Source: an uncultured Gammaproteobacteria bacterium
GTDB lineage: Bacteria; Pseudomonadota; Gammaproteobacteria; Steroidobacterales; Steroidobacteraceae
Direction of reading: 5' to 3'
DNA length: 64,000 nt
NCBI GenBank assembly: GCA_963805965.1
Contig: CAWDVQ010000011.1
Coordinates: 235,802-299,801, forward strand
Below are positions 24,178-61,838 of this stretch, piece after piece (the first letter of the stretch is position 1; the number at the start of each line of letters is the position of its first letter). The notes under the pieces were generated by a model, which had not been told where the DNA came from, ran no database searches, and saw only the letters and a program-made list of their open reading frames with translations. A program made the translations under genes and the position numbers.

Positions 24178-25767
24178 TCAGCTCACCGGAGGCGCGCCGC
24201 CGGCGGCGATGCGGCGTGCCACGTAGTCGTCCAGTGCCTCGACCACCGCCGGATCGCGCACCGGCGGCACGTAGTTCCTGAGCGTGTCCTGCCACAGTGT
24301 GCTGGCACGCTCGGTCGCGGTGTGCGAACCGGCCTCGGTCCACTGGCCGAAATTGCGCCAGTCGGAGACCAGCGGGGTGTAGAACGCGGTGCGGTAGCGC
24401 GCCATGGTGTGCGCGCAGCCGAAAAAGTGTCCGCCCGGGCCGACTTCCGCGATCGCCTCGACCGCCAGGTCATCGCCGCTGGCGGCAAGCGGCTGAAACA
24501 CCTCGGCAAACATCTGCAGCATCTCGATGTCGAGCATGAACTTCTCGTACGAGGTGGTCAGGCCGCTCTCGAGCCAGCCGGCCGCATGCAGCAGGAAATT
24601 GCAGCCGCCCATGAGCGCGCCCCACAGGCTCATCTGCGATTCGTACGCCGCCTGCGCGTCGGGCGCATTGGATGCGGTGGCATTGGAGGAGCGCCACGGC
24701 AGGCCGATATGCCGCGCCAGCTGGCCGGCGCCGATCGAGGACTTGACGTACTCCGGAGTGCCGAATGCCGGTGAGCCGGATTTCATATCGACATTGGAGG
24801 TGAAGCTGCCGTACACCACCGGCGCGCCGGGGCGCACGATCTGTGACAGCACGGTGCCAGCCAGCGCTTCGGCGTGGGCCAATGTGAGCGCGCCGGCAAC
24901 GGTCACCGGCGCCATCGCCCCGGCAAGCGTGAACGGCGTGATGATGAACACCTGTCCGGCGGCGGCGAACTCGAGGATGCCGTTGCCCATCGGGATGTCG
25001 AGCTGCAGCGGCGAGTTGGTGTTGATGATGGTGGACACGTACGGGCGCGAGCGAAATTGCTCCGGCGTCAGCCCGTACGCAATCCTGATCAGCTCGAAAT
25101 TGTCCGCGATCTGCGGTGAGCCGCGCGAGTAAATCTTGGGAATCTTGTCGGTCAGCAGCAGCATTGCGCGCGCAGTCTCCAGGTGCCGGAACTGTACCGG
25201 TACGTCCTGCGGTTCGACGCCGCCGCCAAGCACGTGGATCACCTCGAAGCTCTGGCACAGCTTCATGATGTTGCAGAAGTCCTCCATGGTGCCGGCGCGC
25301 TTGCCGCCCCTGGTGTCCATGATGTTCGGCGGTCCGGAGGTCGGCGCAAATACCACGTGGCGCCCGGAAATCGGCATGCTGTGCTCCGGATCCCTGGCGT
25401 GCAGCGTGACTTCGCGCGGCGCCGTGGCGAGTGCAGCTGCCACCAGGCCGCGGTCAACGCGCACCATCATCGATGATTCATCGACGCTGGCGCCGCCCCT
25501 GGCATAGGTGTGGCGGGCCTCAGGCAACAGCACCCGCATGCCCTGGTTCTCCAGCACGCCCAGCGCCGCCTCGTGGATGGCCGCGACCTGGTCGTCCGAG
25601 AACACCTTGAGCGGCTCGAACGGGTTGACCAGGTGACGGTAGCTGCGGGTGCGATCCACCACCGGCGCGCTGGCCGCGGCTCCAGGCGGCCGCCGCCGTG
25701 GCCGCCGCTCGACGCGCGCGCCGGATTCGCCGGCGCCGATGAGTGCAGCGGCGGGCTCGTCAGTCAT
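24178..25767 (-). CDS. MttB-superfamily (non-pyrrolysine) quaternary-amine:corrinoid methyltransferase, paralog 1
   Basis: Uninterrupted ORF. IITPFTLAGAMAPVTVAGAL, GSFTSNVDMKSGSPAFGTPEY, LHAAGWLESGL and GPGGHFFGCAHT are typical of the trimethylamine-methyltransferase (MttB) fold. Start chosen at MTDEP, which gives an 8-nt overlap ATGACTGA with the lysR stop. Confidence 0.88.
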   Translation of the reverse strand: MTDEPAAALIGAGESGARVERRPRRRPPGAAASAPVVDRTRSYRHLVNPFEPLKVFSDDQVAAIHEAALGVLENQGMRVLLPEARHTYARGGASVDESSMMVRVDRGLVAAALATAPREVTLHARDPEHSMPISGRHVVFAPTSGPPNIMDTRGGKRAGTMEDFCNIMKLCQSFEVIHVLGGGVEPQDVPVQFRHLETARAMLLLTDKIPKIYSRGSPQIADNFELIRIAYGLTPEQFRSRPYVSTIINTNSPLQLDIPMGNGILEFAAAGQVFIITPFTLAGAMAPVTVAGALTLAHAEALAGTVLSQIVRPGAPVVYGSFTSNVDMKSGSPAFGTPEYVKSSIGAGQLARHIGLPWRSSNATASNAPDAQAAYESQMSLWGALMGGCNFLLHAAGWLESGLTTSYEKFMLDIEMLQMFAEVFQPLAASGDDLAVEAIAEVGPGGHFFGCAHTMARYRTAFYTPLVSDWRNFGQWTEAGSHTATERASTLWQDTLRNYVPPVRDPAVVEALDDYVARRIAAGGAPPVS

Positions 25768-26728
25768 TCGATACCGCAAGGCGCACCGGCGCATCCTCGG
25801 CGCTCCGGTGCGGACCAAAATGTTCAATCAGCCAGGTGCGAAACAGCGCGACGGCGGTATCGCTCAGCGCCTCGGGCTGCGTGATCAGGTAATACCCGTA
25901 GCCATCGTCGAGCGAGACCTCGAACGGTCGCACCAGGCGGCCGGAGCGCAGTTCCTCGGCAAACAGATTCACGTCCACCAGCGCCAGCCCTTCACCGCTG
26001 AGGGCGTATTCGACCGCCAGCAGCGCGGTATCGAAAATCACTCCACGCTCGAAATTGATCTGGCCCAGGTTCGCCTGGCGCGCCAGCTGCGTCCAGACGT
26101 GGTGGCGCTCCTGGTCGGCGATGCGCACGTGGATCAGCTCGTTGTCGCGGATGAAACTGCCCAGCTCCTTGCCGGCATGGCGCGCGGCGAGTTCCGGATG
26201 GCACAGGATCGACAGCTTCACCGGCCACAACAGGTCGCTGACGTACTCGGTGACCGCGGGTTTGGAATACACCACCGCCACATCCACATCGCTGGGTGGC
26301 GGCCCGACGCCATAGGGGCTGACCAGATCGAGCTCGATGTCCGGGTTGGCGCGACGAAAATCGCGCAGCACCGGCACCGCCAGCCGCACCGCGAAACTCG
26401 GCGGCATCTGCACGTGCAGCGTGCGCAGCGTCGGGGCTCCGGCATTGCGGATTTCATCCAGCGAGTACTCGAGCCGGTCAAACGACTTGATCACGGTGGG
26501 CAGCAGGTGCTGTCCTGCCTTGGTGAGCACCAGGGCATGCGGCCGGCGGTCGAACAGTTGCACGCCGATCAGCTTCTCGATCGAAATCACGTGGCGCGAC
26601 AGCGCGCTCTGCGAGATGCGCAGCGCATTCGCGGCCGCGGTGAAGCTCGCGTGCTTGGCGACTGCTTCGAATGCGCGCAGCGCGTTCAGCGGCAGCCAGC
26701 GCCGGTCGATGCGTCCTCTGTTGGGCAT
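25760..26728 (-). CDS. LysR-family transcriptional regulator (GcvA-like)
   Basis: LPLNALRAFEAVAKHASFTAAANALRISQSALSRHVISIEKLIGVQLFDRR HTH, followed by a LysR substrate-binding domain. Track ORF trimmed to MPNRG. Confidence 0.9.
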   Translation of the reverse strand: MPNRGRIDRRWLPLNALRAFEAVAKHASFTAAANALRISQSALSRHVISIEKLIGVQLFDRRPHALVLTKAGQHLLPTVIKSFDRLEYSLDEIRNAGAPTLRTLHVQMPPSFAVRLAVPVLRDFRRANPDIELDLVSPYGVGPPPSDVDVAVVYSKPAVTEYVSDLLWPVKLSILCHPELAARHAGKELGSFIRDNELIHVRIADQERHHVWTQLARQANLGQINFERGVIFDTALLAVEYALSGEGLALVDVNLFAEELRSGRLVRPFEVSLDDGYGYYLITQPEALSDTAVALFRTWLIEHFGPHRSAEDAPVRLAVSND

Positions 26729-26939
26729 GGGTGTTCCCGTAAGATCCTTTGGGCCGGCAGCGCCGCGCCGGACGGTGGCGCGCACACATTCTAGCTCCGC
26801 GCCAGCCGGCCGCGCTCGAGAGTGCGGCAACGCCGGCCCTCAAGGCCAATGCCTTTTATTGATGCGGCCGATGCATTTTCTCGGTCTGGAGTCAGCGCTC
26901 GATCTGTGGAAGTATCGCCTGCCACTCAACGGATGGGTC

Positions 26940-28097
26940 ATGAGCGCAGTTCACCTGGCACGGGTTCCAGAAATCATCCAGGGCGCCGGAAGCGTGGACG
27001 CGCTCGGCAGCACGCTGGCGGGCTGCCTGCCGCGCGCCAGCGCCGTGGTGCTTCTGGCGGATCCCGGACTGCGCGCCAGCGGCCTGATCGACACGGCCGC
27101 CGCCGCTCTCACAAGCGCGGGCTTTGGCGTCGTGGTGTGCGACGACATACAGAGTGACCCGACCATGGCGCAGGCCGATGCGGCCGCGCATCTGGCGCGA
27201 CACGAGCGCGCCGCCGCCGTGGTGGCGATCGGCGGCGGCTCGGCCATGGACGTCGGCAAGTCGGTCGCCGCCATCGCTCCCGCCCCGCACCCGGTCAGCC
27301 ACTATGGGCTGTGCGCCAACGCATTCCCGGCCCAGGGCTTGCTGTTGGTGTGCGTGCCGACGACGTCCGGAACCGGCTCGGAAGCGACCCGCACCGCGGT
27401 GCTGGCGGCGCCTGATCATTCGAAGGTCTGGCTCTGGGGCGATGAGCTCAAGCCCAGGCTGATCGTGCTCGACCCGACGCTGACCACGGGGTTGCCGGCG
27501 TCGCTGACCGCCGCCACCGGCATCGATGCGCTGGTGCATGCCATCGAGGCATCGACCAACGCCAATGCCAACGAAGCCAATGATCTTTTCTGCTTCGAGG
27601 CGATCCGGCTGGTGGTCGGGAACCTGATGCGCGCGCTGGAGGCGCCGGGCGATCTTGTGGCGCGGGCCGGCATGCAGCGCGCGGCGACGCTGGCCGGTAT
27701 CGGCATCGACAACTGTGGCACTGCGATTGCGCACAACATCGGGCATGCACTGGCCTCACTGCGCCCGGTGCATCACGGCCGCGCGGTCGGGCTGGCGCTG
27801 CGCGCGACGCTGGCATGGAATGCCGCCGATGACAGCGCGGGGCGATTTGCCGCGGTCGCCGCCGCGATGGGCGAGCCGCGCGAGGCCGCCCGTGCTGCCG
27901 CGGCTTTCGAGCGGCTGCTGCGAGCGTGCGGCATCAAGGTGTCGCTCGGCGGCGAGGGCCACGACGCCATCCGCCCGGCGGATCTGGCGCGGCAGATGGC
28001 GCGACCCGAGAATGAGGCGATGCGCCGCTCCAACCGGCGCGCGGTGAGCGATGCCGACCTGTTAGCCTTTGCCACTGCCGTACTGACCGCGAGCTAA
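26940..28097 (+). CDS. iron-containing (group III) alcohol dehydrogenase
   Basis: VVAIGGGSAMDVGK, VPTTSGTGSE and GIDALVHAIE are Fe-ADH signatures. The 586-aa track ORF was trimmed to MSAVHL. Confidence 0.85.
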   Translation: MSAVHLARVPEIIQGAGSVDALGSTLAGCLPRASAVVLLADPGLRASGLIDTAAAALTSAGFGVVVCDDIQSDPTMAQADAAAHLARHERAAAVVAIGGGSAMDVGKSVAAIAPAPHPVSHYGLCANAFPAQGLLLVCVPTTSGTGSEATRTAVLAAPDHSKVWLWGDELKPRLIVLDPTLTTGLPASLTAATGIDALVHAIEASTNANANEANDLFCFEAIRLVVGNLMRALEAPGDLVARAGMQRAATLAGIGIDNCGTAIAHNIGHALASLRPVHHGRAVGLALRATLAWNAADDSAGRFAAVAAAMGEPREAARAAAAFERLLRACGIKVSLGGEGHDAIRPADLARQMARPENEAMRRSNRRAVSDADLLAFATAVLTAS

Positions 28098-28102: not shown

Positions 28103-29608
28103 GTGAACGAGGCACTCACGTCCCGCGACCGGGCAAGTTGGGAACGCAGCGCCGCGGCGCTCAAGATCGAGGGCCGCGCCTTCATCAATGGCCGCCACGT
28201 AGCGGCGCAATCCGGCCGCGTTTTCGATGACATCAGTCCGATCGACGGCAAGGTTATCGGCCAGGTCGCACGCTGCGAGGCGGCGGACGTCGACGCCGCG
28301 GTGGCTGCGGCGCGCGCCGCGTTTGAGGGCGGCGCCTGGCGCAGGAGCGAACCGCGGCAGCGCAAGCGCGTGCTGCTGCGCTTTGCCGAACTGATCCGCG
28401 CCGACATCGAGCGCCTGGCCCTGCTCGAGACGCTCGATGTCGGGAAACCGATCCACAATTCGATCAATGTCGATGTTCCCAACTGCGCCGACTGCATTGC
28501 TTATTACGCCGAGTTTGCCGACAAGCTGGTGGATGAGATCGCGGCCACCGGCCCGGATGACCTGGCGCTGATCCGGCGTGAGCCGCTGGGAGTCGTCGGC
28601 GCGATCGTGCCGTGGAATTACCCGCTCATCATCAGTGCCTGGAAGATCGGGCCGGCATTGCTGGCGGGCAATTCGGTGGTGCTCAAGCCCGCCGAGCAGT
28701 CACCGCTCGGCAGCATCCGCCTCGGCGAGCTCGGCCTCGAGGCCGGACTGCCGCCCGGGGTGCTCAATGTCGTACCCGGTTACGGCGAGGAGGCCGGCAA
28801 GCCGCTGGCGCTGCATCCGGATGTGGACATGATCAGCTTCACCGGATCGACCGAGGTCGGCAAGCTGATGATGCGCTATGCCGGCGAGTCCAATCTCAAA
28901 CGCGTAGCGCTGGAGCTCGGTGGCAAGAGTCCGCACCTGGTGATGGCGGATGCGGACCTGGAACAAGCGGCCGCAGGCATAGCATGGGGCATCTACTACA
29001 ACGCCGGCGAGACCTGTCACGCCGGTTCGCGCCTGATCGTGCAACAGCAGGTGCGCGCCGGCCTGATCGACGCCATCGAGCGTGTAGCCCGCACCATCAC
29101 GCTGGGACATCCGTTTGACCCGGCGACGCAGATGGGAGCGCTGATTGACAGCGGCCATCTCAAACGGGTGCTGGGCTACATCGATTCCGGCATCGCCGAA
29201 GGCGCGCGCGTGGCCTTCGGCGGCCGCCAGGCGCTGGCCGACAGCGGCGGCTACTACGTCGAAGCCACGGTCCTGGATGAGGTGCAGCCGCACATGCGCG
29301 TCAGCCGTGAGGAGATCTTCGGCCCGGTACTGGCGGTGAGCGCTTTTCGCGAACCCGGCGATGCGCTGCAGGTTGCCAACGATACGATCTACGGCCTGGC
29401 GGCCGCCGTCTGGACCCAGGATATGAATCTCGCCCACCGGCTGTCGGGTGCGCTGCGTGCGGGCACCGTGTGGATCAACAGTTTCGATCGCTCGTCGATG
29501 GCCACGCCGTTCGGCGGCTTCAAGCACTCGGGCTTCGGGCGCGATCGCTCCCCGCACGCGATCGACAAGTACGTCGATCTCAAGACCATCTGGACCGCCT
29601 TTCACTAG
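28103..29608 (+). CDS. NAD(P)-dependent aldehyde dehydrogenase (PuuC/aminoaldehyde-type)
   Basis: 501 aa. VGAIVPWNYPL, FTGSTEVGK, LELGGKSP and EEIFGPV are classical ALDH motifs. GTG start 5 nt after the ADH stop. Confidence 0.9.
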   Translation: MNEALTSRDRASWERSAAALKIEGRAFINGRHVAAQSGRVFDDISPIDGKVIGQVARCEAADVDAAVAAARAAFEGGAWRRSEPRQRKRVLLRFAELIRADIERLALLETLDVGKPIHNSINVDVPNCADCIAYYAEFADKLVDEIAATGPDDLALIRREPLGVVGAIVPWNYPLIISAWKIGPALLAGNSVVLKPAEQSPLGSIRLGELGLEAGLPPGVLNVVPGYGEEAGKPLALHPDVDMISFTGSTEVGKLMMRYAGESNLKRVALELGGKSPHLVMADADLEQAAAGIAWGIYYNAGETCHAGSRLIVQQQVRAGLIDAIERVARTITLGHPFDPATQMGALIDSGHLKRVLGYIDSGIAEGARVAFGGRQALADSGGYYVEATVLDEVQPHMRVSREEIFGPVLAVSAFREPGDALQVANDTIYGLAAAVWTQDMNLAHRLSGALRAGTVWINSFDRSSMATPFGGFKHSGFGRDRSPHAIDKYVDLKTIWTAFH

Positions 29609-29644: not shown

Positions 29645-31249
29645 TCAGACTCCGGCCTCGTCCGCCAGGATCATCGCCGCACCCCGTTCCGCCACCATCA
29701 TCACCGGCGCGTTAGTGTTGCCGGAGGTGATCGAAGGGAACACCGAGGCGTCCACCACCCGCAAGCCGGCGACGCCGTGCACCCGCAGGCGCGCGTCGAC
29801 CACGGCGTGCGCCGGGTCATTACCCATGGCGCAGGTTCCGACCGGGTGAAACACCGATCCGGCGCGTTGCCGGAAATCCGCCAGCAGCTCCTGGTCGGAC
29901 TGCAACTGCACTCCGGGCTGAAGCTCGCGCTCGATGAGCTCGGCCAGCGGCGGCGTGGCGGCGATGCTGCGCAACAGCCGTGCGCCCACGCACACCTTCG
30001 CAACATCGCCTTCGGTAGACAGATAATTCGGGAAGATTGCCGGCGCCATTTGCGGATCGGCCGAGCGGATGGCCAGGTAGCCGCGGCTGGTCGGCCGGCA
30101 GGCGTTGAAGGACAGCAGGACACCGGGGAATGAATCCGGATTCATCAGCCGCCGGTCTCTGGTGCGGGTACTGGTGTAGCTGGCCGGATTGAAATACAGC
30201 TGCAGGTCCGGCGCCGCTTTGTCCGCGTTGCTGCGGACGAAGCCGCCGCCCTGGTTCACGCTCATCGACAGCGGGCCGCGCCGCCGCAGCAGGAACTCGA
30301 TGCCGGCCCGGATCTTGCCGCGCAGCGGATAGAGCTGGTCGTTGAGCGTCGGCACGCGGCTGCGATAGATATAGTTGATACCCAGGTGATCCTGGAGATT
30401 CTGGCCAACCGCCGGTGCGACGTGCCGCAATGCAATGCCACAGCGCGCCAGCAACGCCGGATCGGCGATCCCGGACAGTTGCAGCAGTTGCGGTGAGTTG
30501 ATGCTGCCGGCGGACAGGATCACCGCGCGCGCGGCGCTCGCGCGGCGCGCCTGGCCGTGCCACAGGTATCGGACCCCAGAGGCGCGCTGGCCTTCGAAGT
30601 CGATCTGCCCTACCAGCGCCCGCAGCTTCAGCACCAGGTTCGCTCGGGTGAGTGCCGGTCGCAGGTAGGCGCTGGCGGTGGACTCGCGCATTCCGCCGCG
30701 TGTGGTGATGGGATAGATGCCGACGCCCTCGCTCTGGGCGCTGTTGAAGTCCGGTGTATAGCGGTAGCCGAGTGACTCGCAGGCGCGCAAGTACGCCTGG
30801 CACAGCGGATGCGCCATCGGATTCATATCCGTCACCCGCAGCTGCCCGGCGCCACCGTCGGCGCGATTTTCCAGGGATTCGAATATCGGCCGCACGCCGG
30901 CCCAGCTCCAGCCGGCATCGGTGCAGGCCGCCCAGTCGTCAAAATCCGCAGGCTGTCCGCGCACGTAGACCATGGCGTTGATCGAGCCGGAACCGCCGAG
31001 GACTTTGCCGCGCGGCCAGAAGCTGCGCGCGCCGTCCAGCCCGGCATCCGGCTCGGTTTCGTACATCCAGTTGACGTGCGGGTCGTTGTAGGTACGCCCG
31101 TAGCCAATCGGCACCCGGATCCAGAAGCGCCGGTCCGAGCCCCCGGCCTCGAGCAACAGTACCCGGTTGCGGCTGCGGGCCGACAACCGGTTCGCAAGCA
31201 CGCAACCGGCAGTGCCGGCACCGACGATGATGTAGTCGAAGCTGTCCAT
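29645..31249 (-). CDS. GMC-family FAD oxidoreductase (choline-dehydrogenase-like)
   Basis: MDSFDYIIVGAGTAGCVLANRLS, GGSGSINAMVYVRG, HPVGTCAMG and DASVFPSITSGNTNAP. Start could be the GTG at 31264. Confidence 0.88.
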   Translation of the reverse strand: MDSFDYIIVGAGTAGCVLANRLSARSRNRVLLLEAGGSDRRFWIRVPIGYGRTYNDPHVNWMYETEPDAGLDGARSFWPRGKVLGGSGSINAMVYVRGQPADFDDWAACTDAGWSWAGVRPIFESLENRADGGAGQLRVTDMNPMAHPLCQAYLRACESLGYRYTPDFNSAQSEGVGIYPITTRGGMRESTASAYLRPALTRANLVLKLRALVGQIDFEGQRASGVRYLWHGQARRASAARAVILSAGSINSPQLLQLSGIADPALLARCGIALRHVAPAVGQNLQDHLGINYIYRSRVPTLNDQLYPLRGKIRAGIEFLLRRRGPLSMSVNQGGGFVRSNADKAAPDLQLYFNPASYTSTRTRDRRLMNPDSFPGVLLSFNACRPTSRGYLAIRSADPQMAPAIFPNYLSTEGDVAKVCVGARLLRSIAATPPLAELIERELQPGVQLQSDQELLADFRQRAGSVFHPVGTCAMGNDPAHAVVDARLRVHGVAGLRVVDASVFPSITSGNTNAPVMMVAERGAAMILADEAGV

Positions 31250-31322
31250 TCGCCGAGCTTGCACCTGGCATCACGCAGGTCGCAGTATCTGCGACTGAGC
31301 CCGAGCCTCGCAAAGGCAATCG

Positions 31323-39975: not shown

Positions 39976-40260
39976 ATGCTGCGTATCCGATGTCCATGGT
40001 GTGGTGAGCGCGACGAAACCGAATTTCGCTATCGCGGCGATGCCAGCCAGTCGCGCCCGGCGGGCGACGCCGGACTGGCGGCGTTCACGGCCTACGTCTA
40101 TGAGCGCAAAAATTCACGCGGCTGGCACCTGGAATGGTGGCTGCACGTCGGCGGCTGCCGCCGGCTGCTGAAACTGGTGCGTCACACACTGACGCACGAG
40201 ATCCGCCTCGTCGCCGCGGCGCACGAGCAGCCATCGCTGCCGCCGGCACCGGGCAGCTGA
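39976..40260 (+). CDS. soxD: sarcosine oxidase, delta subunit
   Basis: MLRIRCPWCGERDETEFRYRGDA...YVYERKNSRGWHLEWWLHVGGCRRLLKLVRHTLTHEI is canonical SoxD. Confidence 0.92.
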   Translation: MLRIRCPWCGERDETEFRYRGDASQSRPAGDAGLAAFTAYVYERKNSRGWHLEWWLHVGGCRRLLKLVRHTLTHEIRLVAAAHEQPSLPPAPGS

Positions 40261-43202: not shown

Positions 43203-43212
43203 AGTCCCGTCG

Positions 43213-51512: not shown

Positions 51513-51754
51513 GAAGGACGCCTGGCTGGCATCGACCGAAACCGGCTCCAGGGCGGCAGGGACTGAAATTTTGCTGGCCCCCGTGCTGATTATGAGATGC
51601 CGACGCTGCCTCGCGCCGAGCCATGGTACTGCTTTTGAGGCGGGTACGCAGGCCCGGGCGCTGCCGGATGCCTTTGTTTGCTGAGCCATGCGCCTTTTCT
51701 GTATGCGTGTGGGCATCTGAGCGCACCGGTTTGCGTCTATGCTTTCGCCACCGT

Positions 51755-53930: not shown

Positions 53931-54121
53931 AACATGCTTACTCTTTATGGATCAAAGGTTTACAACATCCCAGACAGCTGGCTGCCGGCGGGCGCAAGGC
54001 GCGCTGTGGGCGGCGATGTCGCGCCTAGACATGCGCCGGTCGCTATACCGGCATAGCGGCGCGGCTGCAGACTGTACGATGACAATGAGACTCCGTGCGT
54101 CCTTAAGTGGGGAGAACGTCG

Positions 54122-54820
54122 ATGGCCGATGGCCAGGATGAGGAATTCGATCTCGACAGCCTGGACGATCAGGAGCTGACCGAGCAGGTTCACGACGATC
54201 TCTACAACGGCCTGAAGGAAGAGGTCGAGACCGCGACCCGGATCTTCCTGGCGCGCGGCTGGTCGCCCGAGAAGGTGCTGAACGACGCGCTGGTCGAAGG
54301 CATGCGCATCGTTGGTATCGATTTCCGCGACGGCATCCTGTTCGTGCCCGAGGTGCTGCTGGCGGCAAACTCGATGAAAGGCGGCATGGAGATCCTGCGG
54401 CCGCTGCTGGCGGAGACCGGCGTCGAGCCGATCGGCAAGATCGTGATCGGCACCGTCAAGGGCGACATTCACGACATCGGCAAGAACCTGGTATCGATGA
54501 TGCTCGAGGGCGCCGGCTTCGAGGTCATCGATCTTGGCATCAACAATCCGGTGGAAAAGTACCTGGCTGCGATCGAGCAGCACCAGCCCGACATCCTCGG
54601 CCTGTCGGCGCTGCTGACCACCACCATGCCCTACATGAAAGTGGTGATCGATACCCTCAAGGAAAAGGGCATCCGCGACAAGTACATCGTACTGGTGGGC
54701 GGGGCACCGCTGAACGAGGAGTTCGGCAAGGCTATCGGCGCCGACGCTTACTGCCGCGATGCCGCGATCGCGGTCGAGACCGCAAAATCGATGGTGGCTG
54801 CGCGCCGGGCCGCGCGCTGA
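54122..54820 (+). CDS. corrinoid (cobalamin-binding) methyl-carrier protein, MtxC-type
   Basis: B12-binding helical cap followed by a Rossmann domain with DxHxxG (GDIHDIGKNL), SxL (LSALLTTT) and GG (LVGGAP) motifs. ggggag RBS 8 nt upstream. Confidence 0.9.
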   Translation: MADGQDEEFDLDSLDDQELTEQVHDDLYNGLKEEVETATRIFLARGWSPEKVLNDALVEGMRIVGIDFRDGILFVPEVLLAANSMKGGMEILRPLLAETGVEPIGKIVIGTVKGDIHDIGKNLVSMMLEGAGFEVIDLGINNPVEKYLAAIEQHQPDILGLSALLTTTMPYMKVVIDTLKEKGIRDKYIVLVGGAPLNEEFGKAIGADAYCRDAAIAVETAKSMVAARRAAR

Positions 54821-54834: not shown

Positions 54835-55455
54835 ATGCAGTGTAGCGACCGGGTACTGGTGATCGCGTGCGGCGCGCTGGCGCGCGAGATCGCGGCGCTC
54901 AAGCGCGCCAGCGGCTGGTCGGCGCTCGATGTGACCTGCCTGCCGCCGGAGCTCCACAACCGGCCGGAAAAGATCCCCGCGGCGGTCAGCGCTGCGATTC
55001 GCGAGGCGCGGGCGCGCTATCGACGAATCTTCGTGGCCTACGCCGACTGCGGTACCGGCGGCGCGCTCGACCGGGTGCTGGCCGAAGAGGGCGTCGAGCG
55101 GCTGCCGGGTGCGCACTGCTATGAACTGTTTGCCACCGCGGCGAGGTTTGCTGCGCTCGCGGAAACCGAGCCCGGCACGTTCTATCTGACCGATTTCCTG
55201 GTGCGGCATTTCGAGCGGCTGGTGATCGGCGGCCTCGGGATCGACCGGCATCCGCAGCTCGCGGGAGAGTATTTCCGCCATTACCGTCGCGTGGTCTACC
55301 TGGCGCAGGTCGCCGATGCACAGCTGGCCGATCAGGCACGCGCCATCGCCGCACGGCTCGGGCTTGCCTACGAGCAGCACGCCAGCGGCTATGGCGAGCT
55401 GGCGACCAGCCTGGCACGCGTGGTACGCGCTCCGGGCCCGCAGCCGGCGGCCTGA
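54835..55455 (+). CDS. DUF1638-family protein
   Basis: VLVIACGALAREI....DVTCLPPELHNRPEKIP...RIFVAYADCGTGGALD is the characteristic DUF1638 pattern seen next to corrinoid methyltransferase genes. Confidence 0.75.
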   Translation: MQCSDRVLVIACGALAREIAALKRASGWSALDVTCLPPELHNRPEKIPAAVSAAIREARARYRRIFVAYADCGTGGALDRVLAEEGVERLPGAHCYELFATAARFAALAETEPGTFYLTDFLVRHFERLVIGGLGIDRHPQLAGEYFRHYRRVVYLAQVADAQLADQARAIAARLGLAYEQHASGYGELATSLARVVRAPGPQPAA

Positions 55456-55473: not shown

Positions 55474-55818
55474 GTGGCGCAGCTCATCATCATTTCGTGG
55501 CGCGACATCCCGGCCCAGGTGATCGTCAAGCGTGGGCGCGAGACGGCGAAGGTGCAGCTGTCGCAGCGCTTTCAGGAGGCGGTCGACCGCGCTGCGATGC
55601 GCGCCGGCAAGGGCAGCTCCGACGCTTATCTTGCCGACTGGAAGCGCAGCCCGCCGCGCTCCTGCGCTGATGATCTCAAGGCGGTGGCCGACGCCGAGGC
55701 TGCGGTGCTCGAGGCGCGCTACAGCGATGAGGATCTGGAGCGCATGATCCGCGCCAAGGGCATCGACGATCGCCTGACCGGCGTGGGCGCCGCGGCCGAT
55801 AGCCCCGGGGCGCGCTGA
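55474..55818 (+). CDS. small virulence-factor-like domain protein (function unknown)
   Basis: AQLIIISWRDIPAQVIVKRGRETAKVQLSQRFQEAVDRAAMRAG resembles the small protein family commonly encoded upstream of MetV/MetF-type genes. GTG start. Confidence 0.6.
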   Translation: MAQLIIISWRDIPAQVIVKRGRETAKVQLSQRFQEAVDRAAMRAGKGSSDAYLADWKRSPPRSCADDLKAVADAEAAVLEARYSDEDLERMIRAKGIDDRLTGVGAAADSPGAR

Positions 55819-56291
55819 TGTATCGCGCGCGCCTCTGGTCGGTGCGCCATGCACGCGGCCTGGATCGATTCTATGGCGTGTTCGAGCACCTGTTGGTGCG
55901 CCTGGCGCCGTTGTTCGCGGCGATCGGCTATCAGCGCCTGGAGCGCCCGGTGGCCGCGATCGAGCGCGGTGTCAAAGGCCTGCTGTTCGACTGCAAGATG
56001 TGCGGCCAGTGCGTGCTGAGTTCCACCGGCATGTCGTGCCCGATGAACTGCCCGAAGAATCTGCGCAACGGCCCCTGCGGCGGGGTGCGCGCCGATGGCT
56101 ACTGCGAGGTCGATGCCCGGATGCGCTGCGTGTGGCTGCTGGCATTCGCCGGCGCCGAGCGCATCCCCGGCGGTATCGACCGAATACGCGCGATCCAGGC
56201 GCCGGTCGACCGCCGCCTCGAGGGGCATTCATCGTGGCTGCGCCTGGTGCGTGATCGCACCGGATCGACGGCGCGCGCGAGTGCACCATGA
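55818..56291 (+). CDS. MetV-like subunit (methylenetetrahydrofolate reductase C-terminal-domain protein, Cys-rich)
   Basis: CKMCGQCVLSSTGMSCPMNCPKNLRNGPCGG Cys motif. TGATG overlap upstream and ATGA overlap downstream. Confidence 0.8.
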   Translation: MYRARLWSVRHARGLDRFYGVFEHLLVRLAPLFAAIGYQRLERPVAAIERGVKGLLFDCKMCGQCVLSSTGMSCPMNCPKNLRNGPCGGVRADGYCEVDARMRCVWLLAFAGAERIPGGIDRIRAIQAPVDRRLEGHSSWLRLVRDRTGSTARASAP

Positions 56292-57304
56292 GATTCGAGG
56301 ATGAGCCGGTTCCGGGCTATCCGCTGCCGATCCTGCCGGGCCACGTGTCCCCAGGCCGCTTCGAGCGCGTGCTGCGCGCCGGCGCGTTTGCGGTAACGAC
56401 CGAACTGGCGCCGCCGGATTCCGCCGACCCGCAGGAGGTGTACCAGCGCGCGCGCGTGCTCGATGGCTATGTCGATGCGATCAACGCCACCGACGGCTCC
56501 GGGGCCAACTGTCACATGTCGAGCCTGGCGGTGTGCGCACTGCTGACGCGCGTCGGCTATGCACCGGTGATGCAGATCTCCTGCCGCGACCGCAATCGGA
56601 TTGCCATCCAGGGCGACATCCTCGGCGGTGCCGCCATGGGGGTGTGCAACATGCTGTGCCTGACCGGCGATGGCGTGCAGGTGGGCGACCATCCGCAGGC
56701 CAGGCCGGTGTTCGATCTGGACTCGATATCGCTGCTGGAACTCGGCTGCACACTGCGCGATCAGCATTGCTTCCAGAGCGGTCGCAAGCTCAGCTTCTCG
56801 CCGCGGGTATTGTTCGGCGCCGGCGAGAACCCGATGGTGCCGCCGCTCGAACACCGTGCGCTGCGGCTAGCGAAGAAGGTGGCCGCCGGGGCGCAGTTCA
56901 TCCAGACGCAGTACGTGTACGATCTGCCGCGACTGCGCGCGTTCATGCGCGGGGTCGAGGACCTGGGGCTGCTCGACCGCGTGTTCCTGCTGATCGGGGT
57001 AGGCCCGATCAGGAGCGCCAAGGCGGCCGAGTGGATGCGCCGCCACGTGCCCGGGGTGCACATCCCCGATGCCATCGTCGATCGCCTGGCGGGCGCGCAG
57101 GATGCGGCGCGCGAGGGGCGCAACATCTGCATCGAACTGATCCAGGAGCTCCGCAGCATGCGCGGAATCCACGGCGTGCACGTGATGGCGTACCGCCAGG
57201 AAGAGGCGGTGGCCGAGATCATCACCGGCTCCGGCGTGCTGGCTGGACGAACGCCATGGCATCCGGGACGCGACCAGAATTCAGCCGACAGGAAAGCATC
57301 ATGA
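56288..57304 (+). CDS. metF: methylenetetrahydrofolate reductase (MetF-type catalytic subunit)
   Basis: FAVTTELAPP, YVDAINATDGSGA, QISCRDRNR, CLTGD and FIQTQYVYD are MTHFR TIM-barrel motifs. Confidence 0.85.
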   Translation: MRFEDEPVPGYPLPILPGHVSPGRFERVLRAGAFAVTTELAPPDSADPQEVYQRARVLDGYVDAINATDGSGANCHMSSLAVCALLTRVGYAPVMQISCRDRNRIAIQGDILGGAAMGVCNMLCLTGDGVQVGDHPQARPVFDLDSISLLELGCTLRDQHCFQSGRKLSFSPRVLFGAGENPMVPPLEHRALRLAKKVAAGAQFIQTQYVYDLPRLRAFMRGVEDLGLLDRVFLLIGVGPIRSAKAAEWMRRHVPGVHIPDAIVDRLAGAQDAAREGRNICIELIQELRSMRGIHGVHVMAYRQEEAVAEIITGSGVLAGRTPWHPGRDQNSADRKAS

Positions 57305-58224
57305 CCGATACGGTTCTCAGTTCCGCGACCAGGGAGGTGGTGATCGGATTCGATCGCCCGTTCGTCATCATCGGCGAGCGCATCAATCCGACTGGACGCA
57401 AGATCCTCGCAGCCGAAATGCTGGCCGGGGATTTCAGCCGCGTGGAGACCGACGCCCGCGCCCAGGTGGAAGCCGGCGCGCACATGCTCGACGTCAACGC
57501 CGGCATCCCGCTGGCGGATGAACCGGCGATTCTTGCGCGCGCCATCCAGCTGGTGCAGTCGATCACCGACGTGCCGCTGTCGATCGACTCCTCGATCGTC
57601 GCCGCGCTGGAAGCGGGACTCAAGGTCTACAAAGGCAAGGCGCTGGTGAATTCGGTCACCGGCGAGGAGGAGCGGCTGGAGAGCGTGCTGCCGCTGATCA
57701 AGAAATATGGCGCTGCAGTGGTCGCGATCTCCAACGATGAGACCGGCATCTCCGAGGATCCGGACGTGCGCTTCGAGGTTGCCAAGCGCATCGTGCATCG
57801 TGCGCTCGATCACGGCATTGCCGCTTGCGACATCGTGGTCGATCCGCTGGTAATGCCGATTGGCGCCATCAATCGCGCCGCGGTGCAGGTGATGCACCTG
57901 CTGCATCGGCTGAAGACCGAGCTAAAGGTCAACACCACCTGCGGCGCCTCGAACATCAGCTTCGGGCTGCCGCGCCGTAACGGTATCAACGCGGCGTTCC
58001 TGACCATGGCGATCGGCTCGGGCATGACCTCCGCGATCACCAACCCGCTGCATCCGGAAGTGGTGGAGGCGGTGCTCGGTGCTGACGTGATGATGGGCCA
58101 TGATCCGGACTGCACGCGCTGGATCAGGAAATTTCGCGAACCGCCACCGGCCGGCGCCGACGGTGAGGCTGGTCGCGGCCGTCGCGAGGGCGGTCATCGC
58201 CGTCGCCCGACGCCGGCCACCTAG
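57301..58224 (+). CDS. methyltetrahydrofolate:corrinoid methyltransferase (pterin-binding domain)
   Basis: FVIIGERINPTGRK, MLDVNAG, LSIDSS, ALVNSVTGE, VVDPLVMPIG and CGASNISFGLP are the pterin-binding (MetH/AcsE/MtrH-like) pattern. ATGA overlap with metF. Confidence 0.88.
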   Translation: MTDTVLSSATREVVIGFDRPFVIIGERINPTGRKILAAEMLAGDFSRVETDARAQVEAGAHMLDVNAGIPLADEPAILARAIQLVQSITDVPLSIDSSIVAALEAGLKVYKGKALVNSVTGEEERLESVLPLIKKYGAAVVAISNDETGISEDPDVRFEVAKRIVHRALDHGIAACDIVVDPLVMPIGAINRAAVQVMHLLHRLKTELKVNTTCGASNISFGLPRRNGINAAFLTMAIGSGMTSAITNPLHPEVVEAVLGADVMMGHDPDCTRWIRKFREPPPAGADGEAGRGRREGGHRRRPTPAT

Positions 58225-58232
58225 GAATCTGC

Positions 58233-60248
58233 ATGGCCGCGTCCGATGCGCTGGTCGTGTTCACGCCGTCGGGCAAACGCGGCCGCTTCGAGCTCGGCAC
58301 GCCGATACTATCGGCCGCGCGCAGCCTCGGAGTAGACATTGATTCCGTGTGTGGCGGGCGGGCGATGTGCACGCGCTGCCAGGTGCTGATCGCCGAGGGC
58401 GAGTTCGCCAAGCACAACGTGCGCTCCTCGGCCGGCAATCTGTCGCCGATGTCGGCCGCGGAACAAAGGCTCGCCGATCGCAAGCTGCTCGGCGCCGGAC
58501 GCCGGCTGTCCTGCCAGGCGCGGCTGCAGGGCGATGTCGTGGTGGACGTGCCGGCGAGCAGCCAGGTGCACCGCCAGGTGGTGCGCAAGGCCGCGGAAGC
58601 CTACGACATCGAGCTCTATCCGCTCATCACGCTGCACTACGTCGAGGTCGCCGAGCCGGACATGCACGATCCATCCGGCGACTTGAAGCGACTGACCGAC
58701 GCGCTGTCGCGCGAGTGGCAGCTGGGCGCACTGCAATGCGATCTGAAGGTGCTGCAGGGGCTGCAGGCTGCACTCAGGAGCGGCAAATGGAAGGTCACGG
58801 TCGCGGTCCATGACCGCTCGCGCATCGTGTCGGTGTGGCCGGGCCTGCACGAGAAGGTATACGGGCTGGCCGTGGACGTCGGTTCCACCACCATCGCCGC
58901 CCACCTGTGCGATCTGACCAGCGGCGACATCGTGGCGGCCGCCGGCATCATGAATCCGCAGATCCGCTTCGGCGAGGATCTGATGAGCCGCGTGTCGTAC
59001 GCGATGATGAACCCGGGCGGCGCCGCGCAGATGACCGCAGCGGTCAGGGGCGCGCTGAGCGAACTGGCGGCCGACGTGGCACGCGCTGCGGGCATCACGC
59101 CGGATGCGATCCTGGAGATGACCCTGGTGGGCAACCCGATCATGCACCACCTGGTCCTGGGCCTGGACCCGGTGGAACTGGGCGGCGCGCCGTTCGCATT
59201 GGCGGTGGACAGCGCGGTTACCGTCACCGCGGCGGAGCTCGACATCGCCGTGAACCCCAACGCCCGCATCTACGTGCTGCCGTGCATCGCCGGCCATGTC
59301 GGCGCCGACACCGCCGGCATGATCCTGGCGGAGCGGCCGGATCTGGCCGAGCCTCTCACGCTGCTGGTGGATGTCGGCACCAACGCGGAGATCGTGCTCG
59401 GCAACCGCGCGCGCCTGGTGGCCTGCTCCAGCCCGACCGGCCCGGCATTCGAGGGCGCGCAAATCAGTTGCGGCCAGCGCGCCGCCCCGGGTGCGATCGA
59501 GCGCGTGCGCATCGATCGCGCTACGCTCGAGCCGCGCTATCGGGTGATCGGCAGCGAGCTGTGGTCGGACGATCCGGGCTTCGCCCAGGCGGTCGGCGCC
59601 ACCGGCGTCACCGGCGTGTGCGGCTCGGGCATCATCGAGCTGATCGCCGAACTCTACCTGGCCGGTGTCATCAACCAGGACGGCGTCATCGACGGCTCGC
59701 TGGCGGCCGTGAGCCCGCGGGTGGTGGCCAACGGCAGGACATTTGCCTACCAGCTCGCGTCCGGCGAGCGCCCGCTATCGATCACGCAAAACGACGTGCG
59801 CGCGATCCAGCTGGCGAAGGCAGCGTTGTACGCCGGTATCCGGCTACTGATGGAGCGGCTGGGAGTGGAACAGGTCGATCGGATCCGGCTCGCCGGTGCG
59901 TTCGGCAGCCACATCGACGTCAAGTACGCCATGGTGCTCGGCATGATTCCCGACTGCGAGCTGTCGCAGGTCGCCTCGGCCGGCAATGCGGCCGGTACCG
60001 GCGCACGCATCGCGCTGCTCGACTCGCGCTCGCGCGCGACTATCGAGGCCATCGTGGGCCAGGTGGAGAAGATCGAGACCGCACTGGAGCCGCGCTTTCA
60101 GACGCATTTCGTCGAGGCGATGGCCCTTCCGCACAAGACCGCACCCTACCCGCACCTGCGCTCGGCGGTGCAGCTGCCGGCGCCCAAAGCGGTGCTGCAG
60201 AGCGATGGCCGCGAGCGGCGCAAGCGGCGCGTGATTCATCAAGGGTAG
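58233..60248 (+). CDS. RACE-type reductive activator of corrinoid enzymes (N-terminal 2Fe-2S ferredoxin + ASKHA ATPase)
   Basis: CGGRAMCTRCQV...LSCQA plant-type ferredoxin Cys pattern. Then GLAVDVGSTTIAAHL and LLVDVGTNAEIV ASKHA phosphate-binding motifs. 671 aa. Confidence 0.88.
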   Translation: MAASDALVVFTPSGKRGRFELGTPILSAARSLGVDIDSVCGGRAMCTRCQVLIAEGEFAKHNVRSSAGNLSPMSAAEQRLADRKLLGAGRRLSCQARLQGDVVVDVPASSQVHRQVVRKAAEAYDIELYPLITLHYVEVAEPDMHDPSGDLKRLTDALSREWQLGALQCDLKVLQGLQAALRSGKWKVTVAVHDRSRIVSVWPGLHEKVYGLAVDVGSTTIAAHLCDLTSGDIVAAAGIMNPQIRFGEDLMSRVSYAMMNPGGAAQMTAAVRGALSELAADVARAAGITPDAILEMTLVGNPIMHHLVLGLDPVELGGAPFALAVDSAVTVTAAELDIAVNPNARIYVLPCIAGHVGADTAGMILAERPDLAEPLTLLVDVGTNAEIVLGNRARLVACSSPTGPAFEGAQISCGQRAAPGAIERVRIDRATLEPRYRVIGSELWSDDPGFAQAVGATGVTGVCGSGIIELIAELYLAGVINQDGVIDGSLAAVSPRVVANGRTFAYQLASGERPLSITQNDVRAIQLAKAALYAGIRLLMERLGVEQVDRIRLAGAFGSHIDVKYAMVLGMIPDCELSQVASAGNAAGTGARIALLDSRSRATIEAIVGQVEKIETALEPRFQTHFVEAMALPHKTAPYPHLRSAVQLPAPKAVLQSDGRERRKRRVIHQG

Positions 60249-60269
60249 CGCGCAGCGGGGCGCGCGCAG

Positions 60270-61838
60270 TCAGACGTTCGAGTCTGGAAACGAGGCCTTG
60301 CGGCGCTGCATGAAATCGAGCAGCGCCTCGTCGATCGCGGCGTCCAGTGGCGGCGCCTGGTACTCGGCGAGCTGTTTTTTCCACAGCGCATTGGCGCGCT
60401 TGGCCATGTCGCTCGCCCCCTCGGCTTCCCACTGCTCGTAGCTGTTGTTGTCGGCCAGCGCCGAGCGGTAGAACGCGGTCTCGAAGTTGGCCTGGGTATG
60501 TGCACAGCCGAGGAAATGCTTGCCGGGGCCGACCTCGCGGATAGCATCCATCGCCTGGCCGTTTTCGGACATGTCCACGCCCGAGAGGAATGTCTGCATC
60601 ATGCCCGCCTGATCGACGTCCATGACGAATTTCTCGTACCCCATGGCCAGGCCGCCTTCGAGCCAGCCGGCGACATGCAGCACGAAATTGACGCCCGCAA
60701 GACAGGTCGGCAGCAACGTGTTAGCCGATTCAAACGCCGCCTGCGCATCCGGAATCTTGGATGCGCACAGGCTGCCGCCGGAACGAAACGGCACCCCGAG
60801 GCGGCGCGCCAGTGCCGCCATGACATACAGCACCAGTGCCGGCTCGGGGGTGCCGAACGTGGGCGCGCCCGACTGCATCGAGATCGAAGAGGCAAAGCTG
60901 CCGAAGATCACCGGCGCTCCGGGGTTCACCAGCTGCGTCAGTGCCATGCCAGCCAGCGCTTCGGCCAGCGTCTGGGCTGCCGTTCCCGCCACCGTCACCG
61001 GCGACATCGCGCCGGCAAGGATGAAGGGCGTCACGATCGTGGCCTGGTTGGCACGCGCGTAGACCTTGAGAGCCCCGAGCATGGTCGAGTCGAACGTCAT
61101 CGGCGAGTTGGCATTGATGAGGCTGACCAGCACGGTTCGGGGGCGCCCGGTCGCCGGGTCGATGAAGTCCGGCCCGAACAGGATCTTCGCCATCTCGACC
61201 GTATCGGCGGCGCGTTCGGGGTGCGTGACCGAGCCCATGAACGGCTTGTCGCTGTATTTGATGTGGCTGTAGACCATATCGAAATGGCGCTTGTTGACCG
61301 GCAGGTCGACCGGCTCGCAGATGGTGCCGCCCGAGTGATGCAGCGAGGGCGCCATGTAGGCGAGCTTGACGAAGTTCCTGAAATCCTCGATACGCGCGTA
61401 GCGACGCCCCTCATCCAGGTTGCGGATGAACGGCGAGCCGTAGGCCGGGGCAAACACGCTGTGCTTGCCGCCGATCGGGACGTTGTGTGCGGGATTGCGC
61501 GCATATTGAACGAATTCGCGCGGCGCGCTGTCGCGGATCAGGGAGCGGCACAGGCCGCGCGGGAAGTGCACGCGCTCGCCCTTGACCTCGGCCCCGGCCG
61601 CCTTCCACAGCGTGAGCGACTCGGGGTCGTCACGAAAGTCGATGCCAATCTCTTCCAGGATGGTATCGGCGTTGCGCTCGATGGTGACCAGGGCCTGCTC
61701 GTCGAGGACTTCGTAGTAAGGCAGGGCGCGTGTGATGTACGGAATAGTGACCGCCGAGCGTGCCGCTCGTGCGGCGCGCTTGGCCTCGCGTCCGCCGCCG
61801 CGATTGCGGCGCGCCGATAGCGCTTGCTGCTCATCCAT
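60270..61838 (-). CDS. MttB-superfamily (non-pyrrolysine) methyltransferase, paralog 3
   Basis: Uninterrupted ORF. VTPFILAGAMSPVTVAGTA, GSFASSISMQSGAPTFGTPE, LHVAGWLEGGL and GPGKHFLGCAHT. GGAGG RBS upstream of MDEQQ. Convergent with the RACE gene (21-nt gap). Confidence 0.88.
   Translation of the reverse strand: MDEQQALSARRNRGGGREAKRAARAARSAVTIPYITRALPYYEVLDEQALVTIERNADTILEEIGIDFRDDPESLTLWKAAGAEVKGERVHFPRGLCRSLIRDSAPREFVQYARNPAHNVPIGGKHSVFAPAYGSPFIRNLDEGRRYARIEDFRNFVKLAYMAPSLHHSGGTICEPVDLPVNKRHFDMVYSHIKYSDKPFMGSVTHPERAADTVEMAKILFGPDFIDPATGRPRTVLVSLINANSPMTFDSTMLGALKVYARANQATIVTPFILAGAMSPVTVAGTAAQTLAEALAGMALTQLVNPGAPVIFGSFASSISMQSGAPTFGTPEPALVLYVMAALARRLGVPFRSGGSLCASKIPDAQAAFESANTLLPTCLAGVNFVLHVAGWLEGGLAMGYEKFVMDVDQAGMMQTFLSGVDMSENGQAMDAIREVGPGKHFLGCAHTQANFETAFYRSALADNNSYEQWEAEGASDMAKRANALWKKQLAEYQAPPLDAAIDEALLDFMQRRKASFPDSNV

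Follow-up and report, generated by a model that had tools for sequence, protein, structure and literature searches.

We analyzed a window of 64,000 nucleotides (64 kb) from an uncultured Steroidobacteraceae bacterium (contig CAWDVQ010000011.1, positions 235,802 to 299,801; positions below are those of the window), in which three genes of the MttB family that do not encode pyrrolysine (non-Pyl) accompany an operon for a single corrinoid protein, MtgC. The best-supported reading is that the three MttB paralogs (P1, P2, and P3) share this one hub. A preliminary description had proposed such a hub-and-spoke design, and it is supported here by the synteny of the hub, by the occurrence of each paralog type at a hub in some genome, by the lack of a second B12-binding open reading frame (ORF) in 1.74 Mb of sequence, and by the separation of the paralogs into three clades. 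We put the probability of the full explanation, that is, a methylated-amine region built like the MtgBCD system, with three MttBs on a single MtgC and with the substrates and tail docking described below, at roughly 75%. By homology with the systems of Ruegeria and Phaeobacter, each MttB would transfer a single methyl group of a quaternary amine with an anionic group to the Co(I) of MtgC, and MtgD would hand it from MtgC to tetrahydrofolate (THF). MetF2, consisting of a methylenetetrahydrofolate reductase (MTHFR) and DUF5981, would oxidize the methyl-THF, and a RACo/RamA-type activase would, with DUF1638, re-reduce Co(II). Published work on marine and rhizobial bacteria already describes the shared-hub design, which makes this locus a further example and not the discovery of a new principle; what is new here is the presence of three separately conserved paralog clades, two of them uncharacterized spokes, in a new lineage.

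Genes were called by third-position GC (GC3) and annotated with Pfam across the whole window. One corrinoid protein, one methyl-THF methyltransferase, and one activator were found among its gene-like ORFs, as previously counted over a shorter part of the sequence. We also trained a hidden Markov model (HMM) on the MtgC sequences of Sinorhizobium meliloti, Paracoccus, Azoarcus, locus L085, and the window (n = 5) and searched it against every six-frame ORF of at least 90 amino acids in 1.74 Mb, comprising the window and 98 further loci (designated by L numbers). The window MtgC scored 470 to 484 bits against this model, which includes the window sequence itself in its training set, and the only MtgC-like match in the window was at 54107-54817. 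With this model and ORF length, no B12-binding ORF besides seven MtgC orthologues was found in the 1.74 Mb.

The hub of Azoarcus sp. KH32C has identical content and order (MtgC-DUF1638-PF13769-DUF5981-MTHFR-MtgD-RACo), and the same gene set recurs in the hubs of S. meliloti and Paracoccus methylovorus, the PF13769 gene being unannotated in Paracoccus. The window, S. meliloti, and Paracoccus each have a P3-type gene at the hub, which in the latter two is divergent from MtgC. The hub operon of L085 begins with a P1-clade gene, and a P2-type gene lies 1.3 kb from MtgC in L020 and about 7 kb from it in L001. The window holds the following features of an MtgBCD-type system: a stand-alone corrinoid protein, MtgD with an adjacent MetF2, RACo with DUF1638, and three non-Pyl PF06253 genes. 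A sigma-70 promoter scan of the hub found no sites.

In Ruegeria pomeroyi (Mausz et al. 2025 PNAS, PMC12478193), growth on glycine betaine (GB) and methionine synthesis both depend on a single MtgC and a single MtgD; RamA and DUF1638 increase along with MtgC/MtgD, and MetF2 adjoins mtgD. The same text reports up to seven PF06253 ORFs per genome, two of whose products rise on GB in Ruegeria, and its authors propose that other methylated compounds feed the same core. For Phaeobacter inhibens, a later preprint describes four paralogs (mtgB1-4), of which a knockout shows mtgB1 to be the GB enzyme; deletion of mtgB1 and gbcAB abolishes growth on GB despite mtgB2-4, and MtgB and MtgE are described as competitors for MtgC and MtgD (bioRxiv 10.64898/2025.12.19.695462). 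Price et al. 2018 (PMC5764234) had earlier reported the three-part methionine synthase and found RamA and DUF1638 to be necessary for B12-dependent methionine synthesis in P. inhibens.

The window has MtgC, MtgD, MetF2, the RamA-like activase, and DUF1638 in common with the MtgBCD(E) systems of Ruegeria, Phaeobacter, and S. meliloti, and P3 is 69% identical to the hub-adjacent gene of S. meliloti. Several non-Pyl PF06253 paralogs feeding one MtgC are a further likeness, supported by genetics in Ruegeria and Phaeobacter and predicted from the genes here. Those hosts are marine or rhizobial Alphaproteobacteria, whereas the host of the window is an uncultured soil member of the Steroidobacteraceae; moreover, the window packs three paralogs and downstream demethylases into 38 kb, has no mtgE, and adds to the P2 spoke PhnD-like and desaturase-like proteins that are not mentioned in the accessible parts of the MtgBCD(E) literature. 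Sharing is favored because the Azoarcus-type operon is the system that was genetically shown in Ruegeria and Phaeobacter to serve several clients with one MtgC, because each paralog type sits at the hub in some relative, and because the MtgC model found no other B12-binding ORF in the window and 98 loci. The conserved Arg tails described below lend it indirect support.

All three MttB-family ORFs are full length, with strong PF06253 matches and no in-frame stop, at the positions first reported (Table 1). The core motifs listed in the preliminary description proved to be invariant alignment columns, and elsewhere the proteins diverge, with a mutual identity of 37 to 47%. A role as Pyl-MttB trimethylamine methyltransferase was considered for each paralog and rejected, given the lack of an in-frame stop and scores of 330, 268, and 265 bits, far under the cutoff of 525, for the Pyl-MttB equivalog TIGR02369. 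This model was their only NCBIfam match, and none of them matched any non-Pyl MttB model. The pyrrolysine position (X) of the Methanosarcina barkeri MttB (7xcl) aligns with an ordinary residue of P2 in a HMMER alignment. The paralogs have the Pfam family and TIM-barrel fold in common with that enzyme (PDB 7XCL), but they score just 111 to 182 bits and have no UAG in frame. Against PDB entries, P3 scored 784 bits with 4yyc, 434 bits with the Desulfitobacterium hafniense MtgB (2qne/9yce), and 134 bits with Pyl-MttB; the corresponding scores with 4yyc and 2qne were 356 and 316 bits for P1 and 355 and 306 bits for P2.

A neighbor-joining tree and an identity matrix resolved three separately conserved clades, with 57 to 85% identity within clades across genera and classes, and not the tight clustering with one characterized enzyme that would have spoken against the hub-and-spoke proposal. 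The P3 clade includes the genes of Azoarcus (80% identical), S. meliloti (4YYC-like; 69%), and Paracoccus (69%) and is the group nearest to the characterized D. hafniense MtgB (43%). The P2 clade includes L001 (85%) and Terrarubrum flagellatum (75%), and the P1 clade includes L082, L085, and L088 (75 to 76%) and a Mesorhizobium plasmid gene (57%); a paralog on pSymA of S. meliloti is placed between these two clades. In L025, a fourth and very distant MttB-family gene (1371-2774) lies 6 kb from the P2 orthologue; it shares 17 to 20% identity with the proteobacterial clades and 29% with D. hafniense MtgB.

MtgB binds GB via Y97 and F356 (cation-pi) and via R312 and H348 (carboxylate), and the loss of Tyr97 raises its Michaelis constant (Km) several-hundred-fold (Picking et al. 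2026, PMC13080624). We compared these positions across 249 sequences, with MtgB numbering taken as the 9YCE chain index plus 2, an offset derived from alignments. The substrates of all three paralogs probably carry an anionic group, because R312 and H348 are invariant in P1, P2, P3, and 240 relatives. The Tyr at position 97 is retained in the P3 clade only; it is Ser in P1 and in 116 of the 120 sequences of the P1 group, and it varies in the P2 group (52 His, 50 Thr, and 17 Asn, with His in P2 itself). The F356 position is always Gly, with an invariant Trp four residues earlier, at the I352 position. The cation-pi pair is therefore present in part in P3 (Y97 only) and lacking in P1 and P2, and P3 alone resembles the GB site.

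D. hafniense MtgB shares its fold and family with all three paralogs, but P1 and P2 are only 33 to 34% identical to it and lack Y97, and the proteobacterial enzymes have a basic N-terminal tail that D. hafniense MtgB lacks. Furthermore, D. hafniense stops at dimethylglycine, whereas the locus in the window continues with dimethylglycine dehydrogenase (DMGDH)-like and Sox genes. In Eubacterium limosum, MtpB (proline betaine), MtcB (carnitine), and MtyB (gamma-butyrobetaine) share MtqC, so that several non-Pyl MttB paralogs likewise use a common corrinoid protein, and their anionic-group substrates are recognized by the R312 equivalent, as we propose for the window paralogs. E. limosum is an anaerobic acetogen with other corrinoid and THF-methyltransferase lineages. 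Its phosphocholine enzyme, MthB, has a dedicated MthC and MthA.

P3 was said to abut the hub, and it does: it is convergent with RACo and ends 21 nucleotides from the RACo stop. Its sequence is 69 to 80% identical to S. meliloti, Paracoccus, and Azoarcus genes that adjoin the hub or betAB, and the Azoarcus orthologue adjoins folD, a choline binding protein gene, betA, and betB. P3 is probably a glycine betaine:corrinoid methyltransferase of the MtgB type, on the grounds of this gene context and its active-site residues. The earlier statement that substrates are unassignable from sequence consequently holds for P1 and P2, while for P3 a GB enzyme is the probable assignment. Divergent from P3 is a gene for a sigma-54 activator (62180-63823) without an N-terminal sensor or receiver domain, followed by one for a LuxR-type response regulator. 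A sigma-54 promoter upstream of P3 was considered and rejected, since matches were no commoner than in shuffled sequence and none occurred in 61839-62179. GlxA-family regulators (AraC plus DJ-1/PfpI) recur beside the hub or MttB genes in L001, L020, L085, and L092 to L095; they are absent from the window, where the LysR gene and the sigma-54 activator hold those positions.

P2 is divergent from a GMC oxidase and is followed, after a 24-nucleotide gap, by a leaderless PhnD-like protein, as noted previously; no signal peptide is possible on the latter, because its reading frame opens only at 32862. We surveyed this module with the PhnD-like protein as query, taking a single genome of each species, which gave 80 loci (81 with the window), nearly all from Steroidobacteraceae or unclassified Gammaproteobacteria with a few Roseiarcus/Beijerinckiaceae, and scored the presence of the window proteins by tblastn. 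The P2 module is conserved in about 75 species. MttB2 (the P2 gene) lies immediately upstream of the PhnD-like gene in 77/81 loci, a desaturase-like gene is convergent with the PhnD-like gene in 74/81, including loci without MttB2, and components of the four-gene ABC importer are present in 60 to 70. SoxB follows the importer in 35 loci and DMGDH-like 2 in 24, one or the other following the ABC operon in most; the GMC oxidoreductase is upstream of MttB2 in 13. In the window, the soxD ORF (Table 1) completes the soxBDAG set, which corrects the preliminary description.

The importer binding protein attains the OsmF glycine-betaine equivalog cutoff (401 versus 400 bits), and in the cultured Terrarubrum, the P2-type MttB (75%) is the last-but-two gene of a soxBDAG-DMGDH-DUF1289-bmt-MttB-MR_MLE operon. 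Because of this importer and this operon, P2 is assigned by gene context to a GB-type pathway. P2 would most likely act on GB or a close analogue that the neighboring OsmF-type importer supplies, and its product would pass to DMGDH-like 2 and SoxBDAG, which are predicted to carry out the later demethylation steps from dimethylglycine to sarcosine to glycine.

The PhnD-like orthologues (120 listed) are 248 to 330 amino acids long, most of them 262 to 271, and the protein is consistently leaderless. It is modeled with a type II binding-protein fold (mean predicted local distance difference test [pLDDT] score, 70.6), and its nearest structures were the oxyanion sensors AioX and ArrX, followed by XAC2383, PhnD, and PtxB; the first four of these were the top Foldseek matches. 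The PhnD-like/desaturase-like pair persists without MttB2: in L014, a GMC oxidoreductase gene is upstream instead, and in L065 the pair adjoins genes for a Rieske-type oxygenase, an MR_MLE protein, and an ornithine-cyclodeaminase-family protein. This pair and the Arg-tail/acidic-hub pattern are the only elements of the system that might be new.

In six loci (L016, L032, L040, L045, L050, and L055), MttB2 is directly preceded by orthologues of MFS2 and a GMC oxidoreductase, in L016 also of MR_MLE. The MFS2 and MR_MLE genes of the window (50253-52942) adjoin the hub instead, which indicates that the region has been rearranged; the MFS2, GMC oxidoreductase, and MR_MLE genes may belong to a betaine regulon. 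Proline-betaine epimerase was considered as a function of the MR_MLE protein (51623-52942) and rejected, as its best PDB relatives were unnamed structural-genomics entries and the NCBIfam sugar-acid dehydratases scored far under cutoff. A PDB search with the MR_MLE gene of L082 gave no named function.

P1 forms a cassette with a LysR gene and a DMGDH-like gene, in keeping with the grouping first described: the LysR stop (25760) overlaps the P1 ATG (25767), and the DMGDH-like gene is 111 nucleotides downstream on the same strand. This LysR-MttB-DMGDH cassette recurs in L082 to L084, L086, and L087 with divergent genes for an iron-containing alcohol dehydrogenase (Fe-ADH) and an aldehyde dehydrogenase (ALDH), and these two genes are conserved beside LysR-MttB1 in L082 to L086. 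The three gene neighborhoods were thus as described, except that on comparative evidence Fe-ADH and ALDH go with the P1 cassette and not with P2. Their best NCBIfam matches were ErcA/GbsB-like and PuuC/BADH-like, all below cutoff, and they are a putative pair for the oxidation of an amino alcohol to a betaine.

In L082 and L083, the cassette is flanked by genes for BKACE, a 3-hydroxyacyl-CoA-dehydrogenase/thioesterase fusion, an NDP-forming CoA ligase, an enoyl-CoA hydratase, and an acyl-CoA dehydrogenase, parts of which also occur in L084 and L086. We take this set to be the known genes for converting carnitine or gamma-butyrobetaine to GB, as in the Pseudomonas and Sinorhizobium pathways. 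DMGDH-like 1 is 55 to 56% identical to the DMGDH-like 2 orthologues of L015 and L079, and both window proteins resemble true DMGDH (Table 1). P1 would act on a different betaine, whose tertiary-amine product would be taken by its own DMGDH-like partner, presumed to be a THF-dependent N-demethylase for the second step. Groupings of an MttB, a tertiary-amine demethylase, and a regulator were also found in Mesorhizobium, S. meliloti pSymA, Leisingera, and Roseinatronobacter; this cassette is a general building block.

The basic N-terminal tails reported for the MttBs are real, translated, and under selection, as judged from conservation and codon pattern in the P2 orthologues. Across 61 orthologues, the P2 tail follows the motif RRRxRxRxxR-STGPxLAPLPRL, with Arg kept at six positions in 45 to 61 of them, and codon entropy is higher at position 3 (1.57) than at positions 1 and 2 (0.96 and 0.82). 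P2 residues 1 to 23 are predicted to be disordered (AlphaFold; pLDDT < 50, without secondary structure). Arg-rich tails are not confined to the MttBs; MtgD, RACo, and MtgE have them as well, at the C terminus. MtgD has an Arg/Gly-rich tail (GRGRREGGHRRRP), RACo ends in GRERRKRR, and the MtgE/Bhmt-like proteins end in RERRRRA in S. meliloti, ARRGARRRG in Terrarubrum, and RRSTGRRGAR in L085. In a Leisingera sp. NJS201 plasmid locus (L097, approximately 7900-8010), the MttB gene as annotated begins without a tail, and a typical basic tail, MTLENEGNTRGRRRTRKTAAGPRRSA, is encoded just upstream in another frame, which could reflect a frameshift, a sequencing error, or mis-annotation.

We compared the tails in five taxa of three proteobacterial classes (material: the window, L089, L094, L095, L085, and L091) by the maximum number of Arg in any stretch of 15 residues at the terminus concerned. 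This number was 5 to 6 for MttB at the N terminus and, at the C terminus, 4 to 7 for MtgD, 5 to 7 for RACo, and 5 for MtgE. The pattern was weak or absent in proteins of the same operons that are not MtgC clients: at either terminus, DUF1638, PF13769, and MTHFR had 1 to 4, with one value of 5, and DUF5981 had 2 to 5. The N terminus of MtgC is conserved as acidic, with a net charge of -6 to -12 over 30 residues across taxa and of -10 to -11 over the first 30 to 35 residues in the window. A survey of MtgD C termini at 50%-identity representatives was muddied by fragments and fusions, and distant stand-alone MtgD homologues end in shorter Lys/Arg-rich tails, not long Arg/Gly ones.

The Arg tails of the MtgC clients may be electrostatic docking handles for the acidic MtgC N terminus, an idea of which word searches of the two main MtgBCD papers found no mention. 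A broader version, in which the tails are a common plug that replaces the covalent linkers of MetH, with clients competing for one B12 carrier, and in which the P2 spoke may also need a hitherto undescribed accessory pair of a cytoplasmic PhnD/AioX-fold binding protein and a membrane di-iron desaturase-like protein, is one we hold only tentatively and consider on balance doubtful.

Several observations weigh against a hub shared by three paralogs with separate substrates. The corrinoid count covers the 64-kb window, and a second corrinoid protein may lie elsewhere in the genome. MtgE (PF02574) was absent among the ORFs scanned with Pfam in the window; membership in the MtgBCD systems is still possible without it, since mtgE is often encoded elsewhere according to PMC12478193. 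The P1 and P2 clades are uncharacterized, and methyl transfer is a role predicted for them in this organism. P1-clade members occur in at least three contexts, so the clade may not be functionally uniform. P2 and P3 are both in GB-like contexts, which the idea of one substrate per paralog does not explain, and P3 itself falls short of the full MtgB residue signature, having Gly for F356 and the Trp four residues earlier. In addition, terminal Arg counts are unexceptional within this window of 67% GC alone; the tail argument rests on conservation across taxa, because a single-genome statistic does not discriminate in a GC-rich window.

An alternative is that the three paralogs are isoenzymes for GB, distinguished by regulation or affinity alone: one would be constitutive alongside the hub, another induced together with the transporter and the sox genes, and the last induced when choline or carnitine is broken down. 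All three retain R312 and H348 for carboxylate binding, P2 and P3 share GB contexts, the DMGDH-like partner of P1 is as near to true DMGDH as is DMGDH-like 2 (612 and 558 bits), and P1 is flanked in relatives by what we take to be carnitine-to-betaine genes (BKACE and 3-hydroxyacyl-CoA dehydrogenase plus thioesterase). The two PF06253 proteins that are up on GB in Ruegeria (PMC12478193) fit this as well. Isoenzymes are nevertheless hard to square with a mutual identity of only 37 to 47% when identity within the clades is 57 to 85%, with the replacement of Tyr97, whose loss so strongly affects Km in MtgB, by Ser in P1 and by His, Thr, or Asn in the P2 group, and with the P. inhibens result that growth on GB stops upon deletion of mtgB1 and gbcAB though mtgB2-4 remain. 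We regard this alternative as unlikely.

It is considerably less probable that the hub is not shared and that P1 and P2 use their own corrinoid proteins and methyl acceptors encoded elsewhere in the genome, as do many MttB-family genes of anaerobes. E. limosum MthB, with its own MthC and MthA, is a precedent, and the visible genome amounts to 64 kb; however, MtgC orthologues were the only B12-binding ORFs found in the window and 98 loci, a P1-clade gene is at the hub in L085 and a P2 gene in L020, and Ruegeria and Phaeobacter run four to seven paralogs on a single mtgC. Finally, P1, P2, or both might no longer be methyltransferases, having become binding or regulatory proteins or catalysts of another TIM-barrel reaction that are merely colocalized with amine catabolism. 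Neither clade has a characterized member, and P2 is always paired with an unexplained cytoplasmic partner of binding-protein fold. Yet the PF06253 matches are full length (597 to 650 bits), R312 and H348, which anchor the substrate, are invariant, as are most family motifs, and MttB genes recur together with tertiary-amine demethylase genes in several genera, in keeping with sequential demethylation, so that we consider a loss of methyltransferase activity very improbable.

The features of the proposed shared-hub locus are collected in Table 1. The nearest named proteins to those of the window are from Steroidobacteraceae metagenome-assembled genomes (MAGs), and the closest species-representative locus, L002 (a palsa peat MAG), has 91 to 97% protein identity and is colinear from MttB1 to SoxG.

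Table 1. Genes of the MttB paralogs and the proposed shared MtgC hub in the 64-kb window
Feature	Position	Strand	Basis and remarks
DMGDH-like 1 (DAO-FAO_M-GCV_T-GCV_T_C)	21655-24066	-	Pfam; 612 bits to mammalian dimethylglycine dehydrogenase 4pab
Paralog 1 (P1)	24178-25767 (ORF to 25827)	-	PF06253 (MTTB), 650 bits; non-Pyl MttB family, third clade
LysR-family (GcvA-like) regulator	25760-26830, true start probably near 26725	-	HTH_1 + LysR_substrate; GcvA subfamily 209 bits, below cutoff
Fe-ADH	26940-28097	+	Pfam; divergent from LysR
Aldehyde dehydrogenase	28103-29608	+	Pfam
GMC oxidoreductase, choline-dehydrogenase-like	29645-31264	-	GMC_oxred_N + GMC_oxred_C; subfamily 528 bits versus cutoff 605
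Paralog 2 (P2)	31323-32861	+	PF06253, 597 bits; non-Pyl MttB family, uncharacterized clade
Leaderless PhnD/PtxB/AioX-like protein	32886-33701	+	PF12974
FA_desaturase-family membrane di-iron protein	33713-34708	-	PF00487; last gene of betaine ABC operon
YehZYXW/OsmF-type ABC importer (permease, ATPase, permease, binding protein 37628-38539)	34799-38539	-	Pfam
soxB	38656-39963	+	Pfam; subfamily 620 bits versus cutoff 529
soxD	39976-40260	+	ORF
soxA	40260-43202	+	Pfam
soxG	43171-43782	+	Pfam
DMGDH-like 2	43779-46193	+	Pfam; 558 bits to 4p9s
MtgC	54107-54820	+	PF02607 (B12-binding_2 cap) + PF02310 (B12-binding); stand-alone; DxHxxG as DIHDIGKN; acidic N-terminal extension
DUF1638 (PF07796)	54835-55455	+	Pfam
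PF13769 protein	55474-55818	+	Pfam
DUF5981/MTHFR C-terminal-like	55818-56291	+	Pfam
MTHFR/MetF2	56288-57304	+	Pfam; ATGA overlap with MtgD
MtgD, methyl-THF:corrinoid methyltransferase	57301-58224	+	Pterin_bind; NF005719 361 bits versus cutoff 259
RACo/RamA-type ATP-dependent reductive activase	58233-60248	+	Fer2, RACo_linker, Raco_middle, RACo_C_ter
Paralog 3 (P3)	60270-61838 (ORF to 61868)	-	PF06253, 774 bits; non-Pyl, MtgB type

The G+C content of the window is 61 to 71% apart from one low-GC insert. A tRNA-Arg gene (6490-6564) is directly followed by genes for a phage-type integrase (6600-7715) and a NikA-like mobilization protein (8463-9053), and G+C falls to 0.56 to 0.58 there. The stretch from 6490 to 16000 is probably an integrated mobile element between moa/moe genes and the amine-catabolism region. 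A small ORF in this insert (14426-14923) gave an E value of 2.9e-9 with the VHL beta domain (PF01847), an unusual match in bacteria. An Rfam scan of the window found no cobalamin or other riboswitch, its sole match being one tRNA.

The locus carries aerobic B12-dependent betaine demethylation beyond marine and rhizobial Alphaproteobacteria and into the Steroidobacteraceae, a family that recurs among the soil and peat metagenomes and MAGs met in our comparisons. Its three spokes and one hub make a compact natural set for assigning substrates to uncharacterized MttB clades; P2-type enzymes have a cultured handle in Terrarubrum, and P3-type enzymes have theirs in Azoarcus, Paracoccus, and Sinorhizobium. 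If tail docking is true, it would explain physically how catabolic and anabolic methyltransferases share and compete for one corrinoid protein, and it would bear on the demand for B12 and the flow of methyl groups in soils and oceans.

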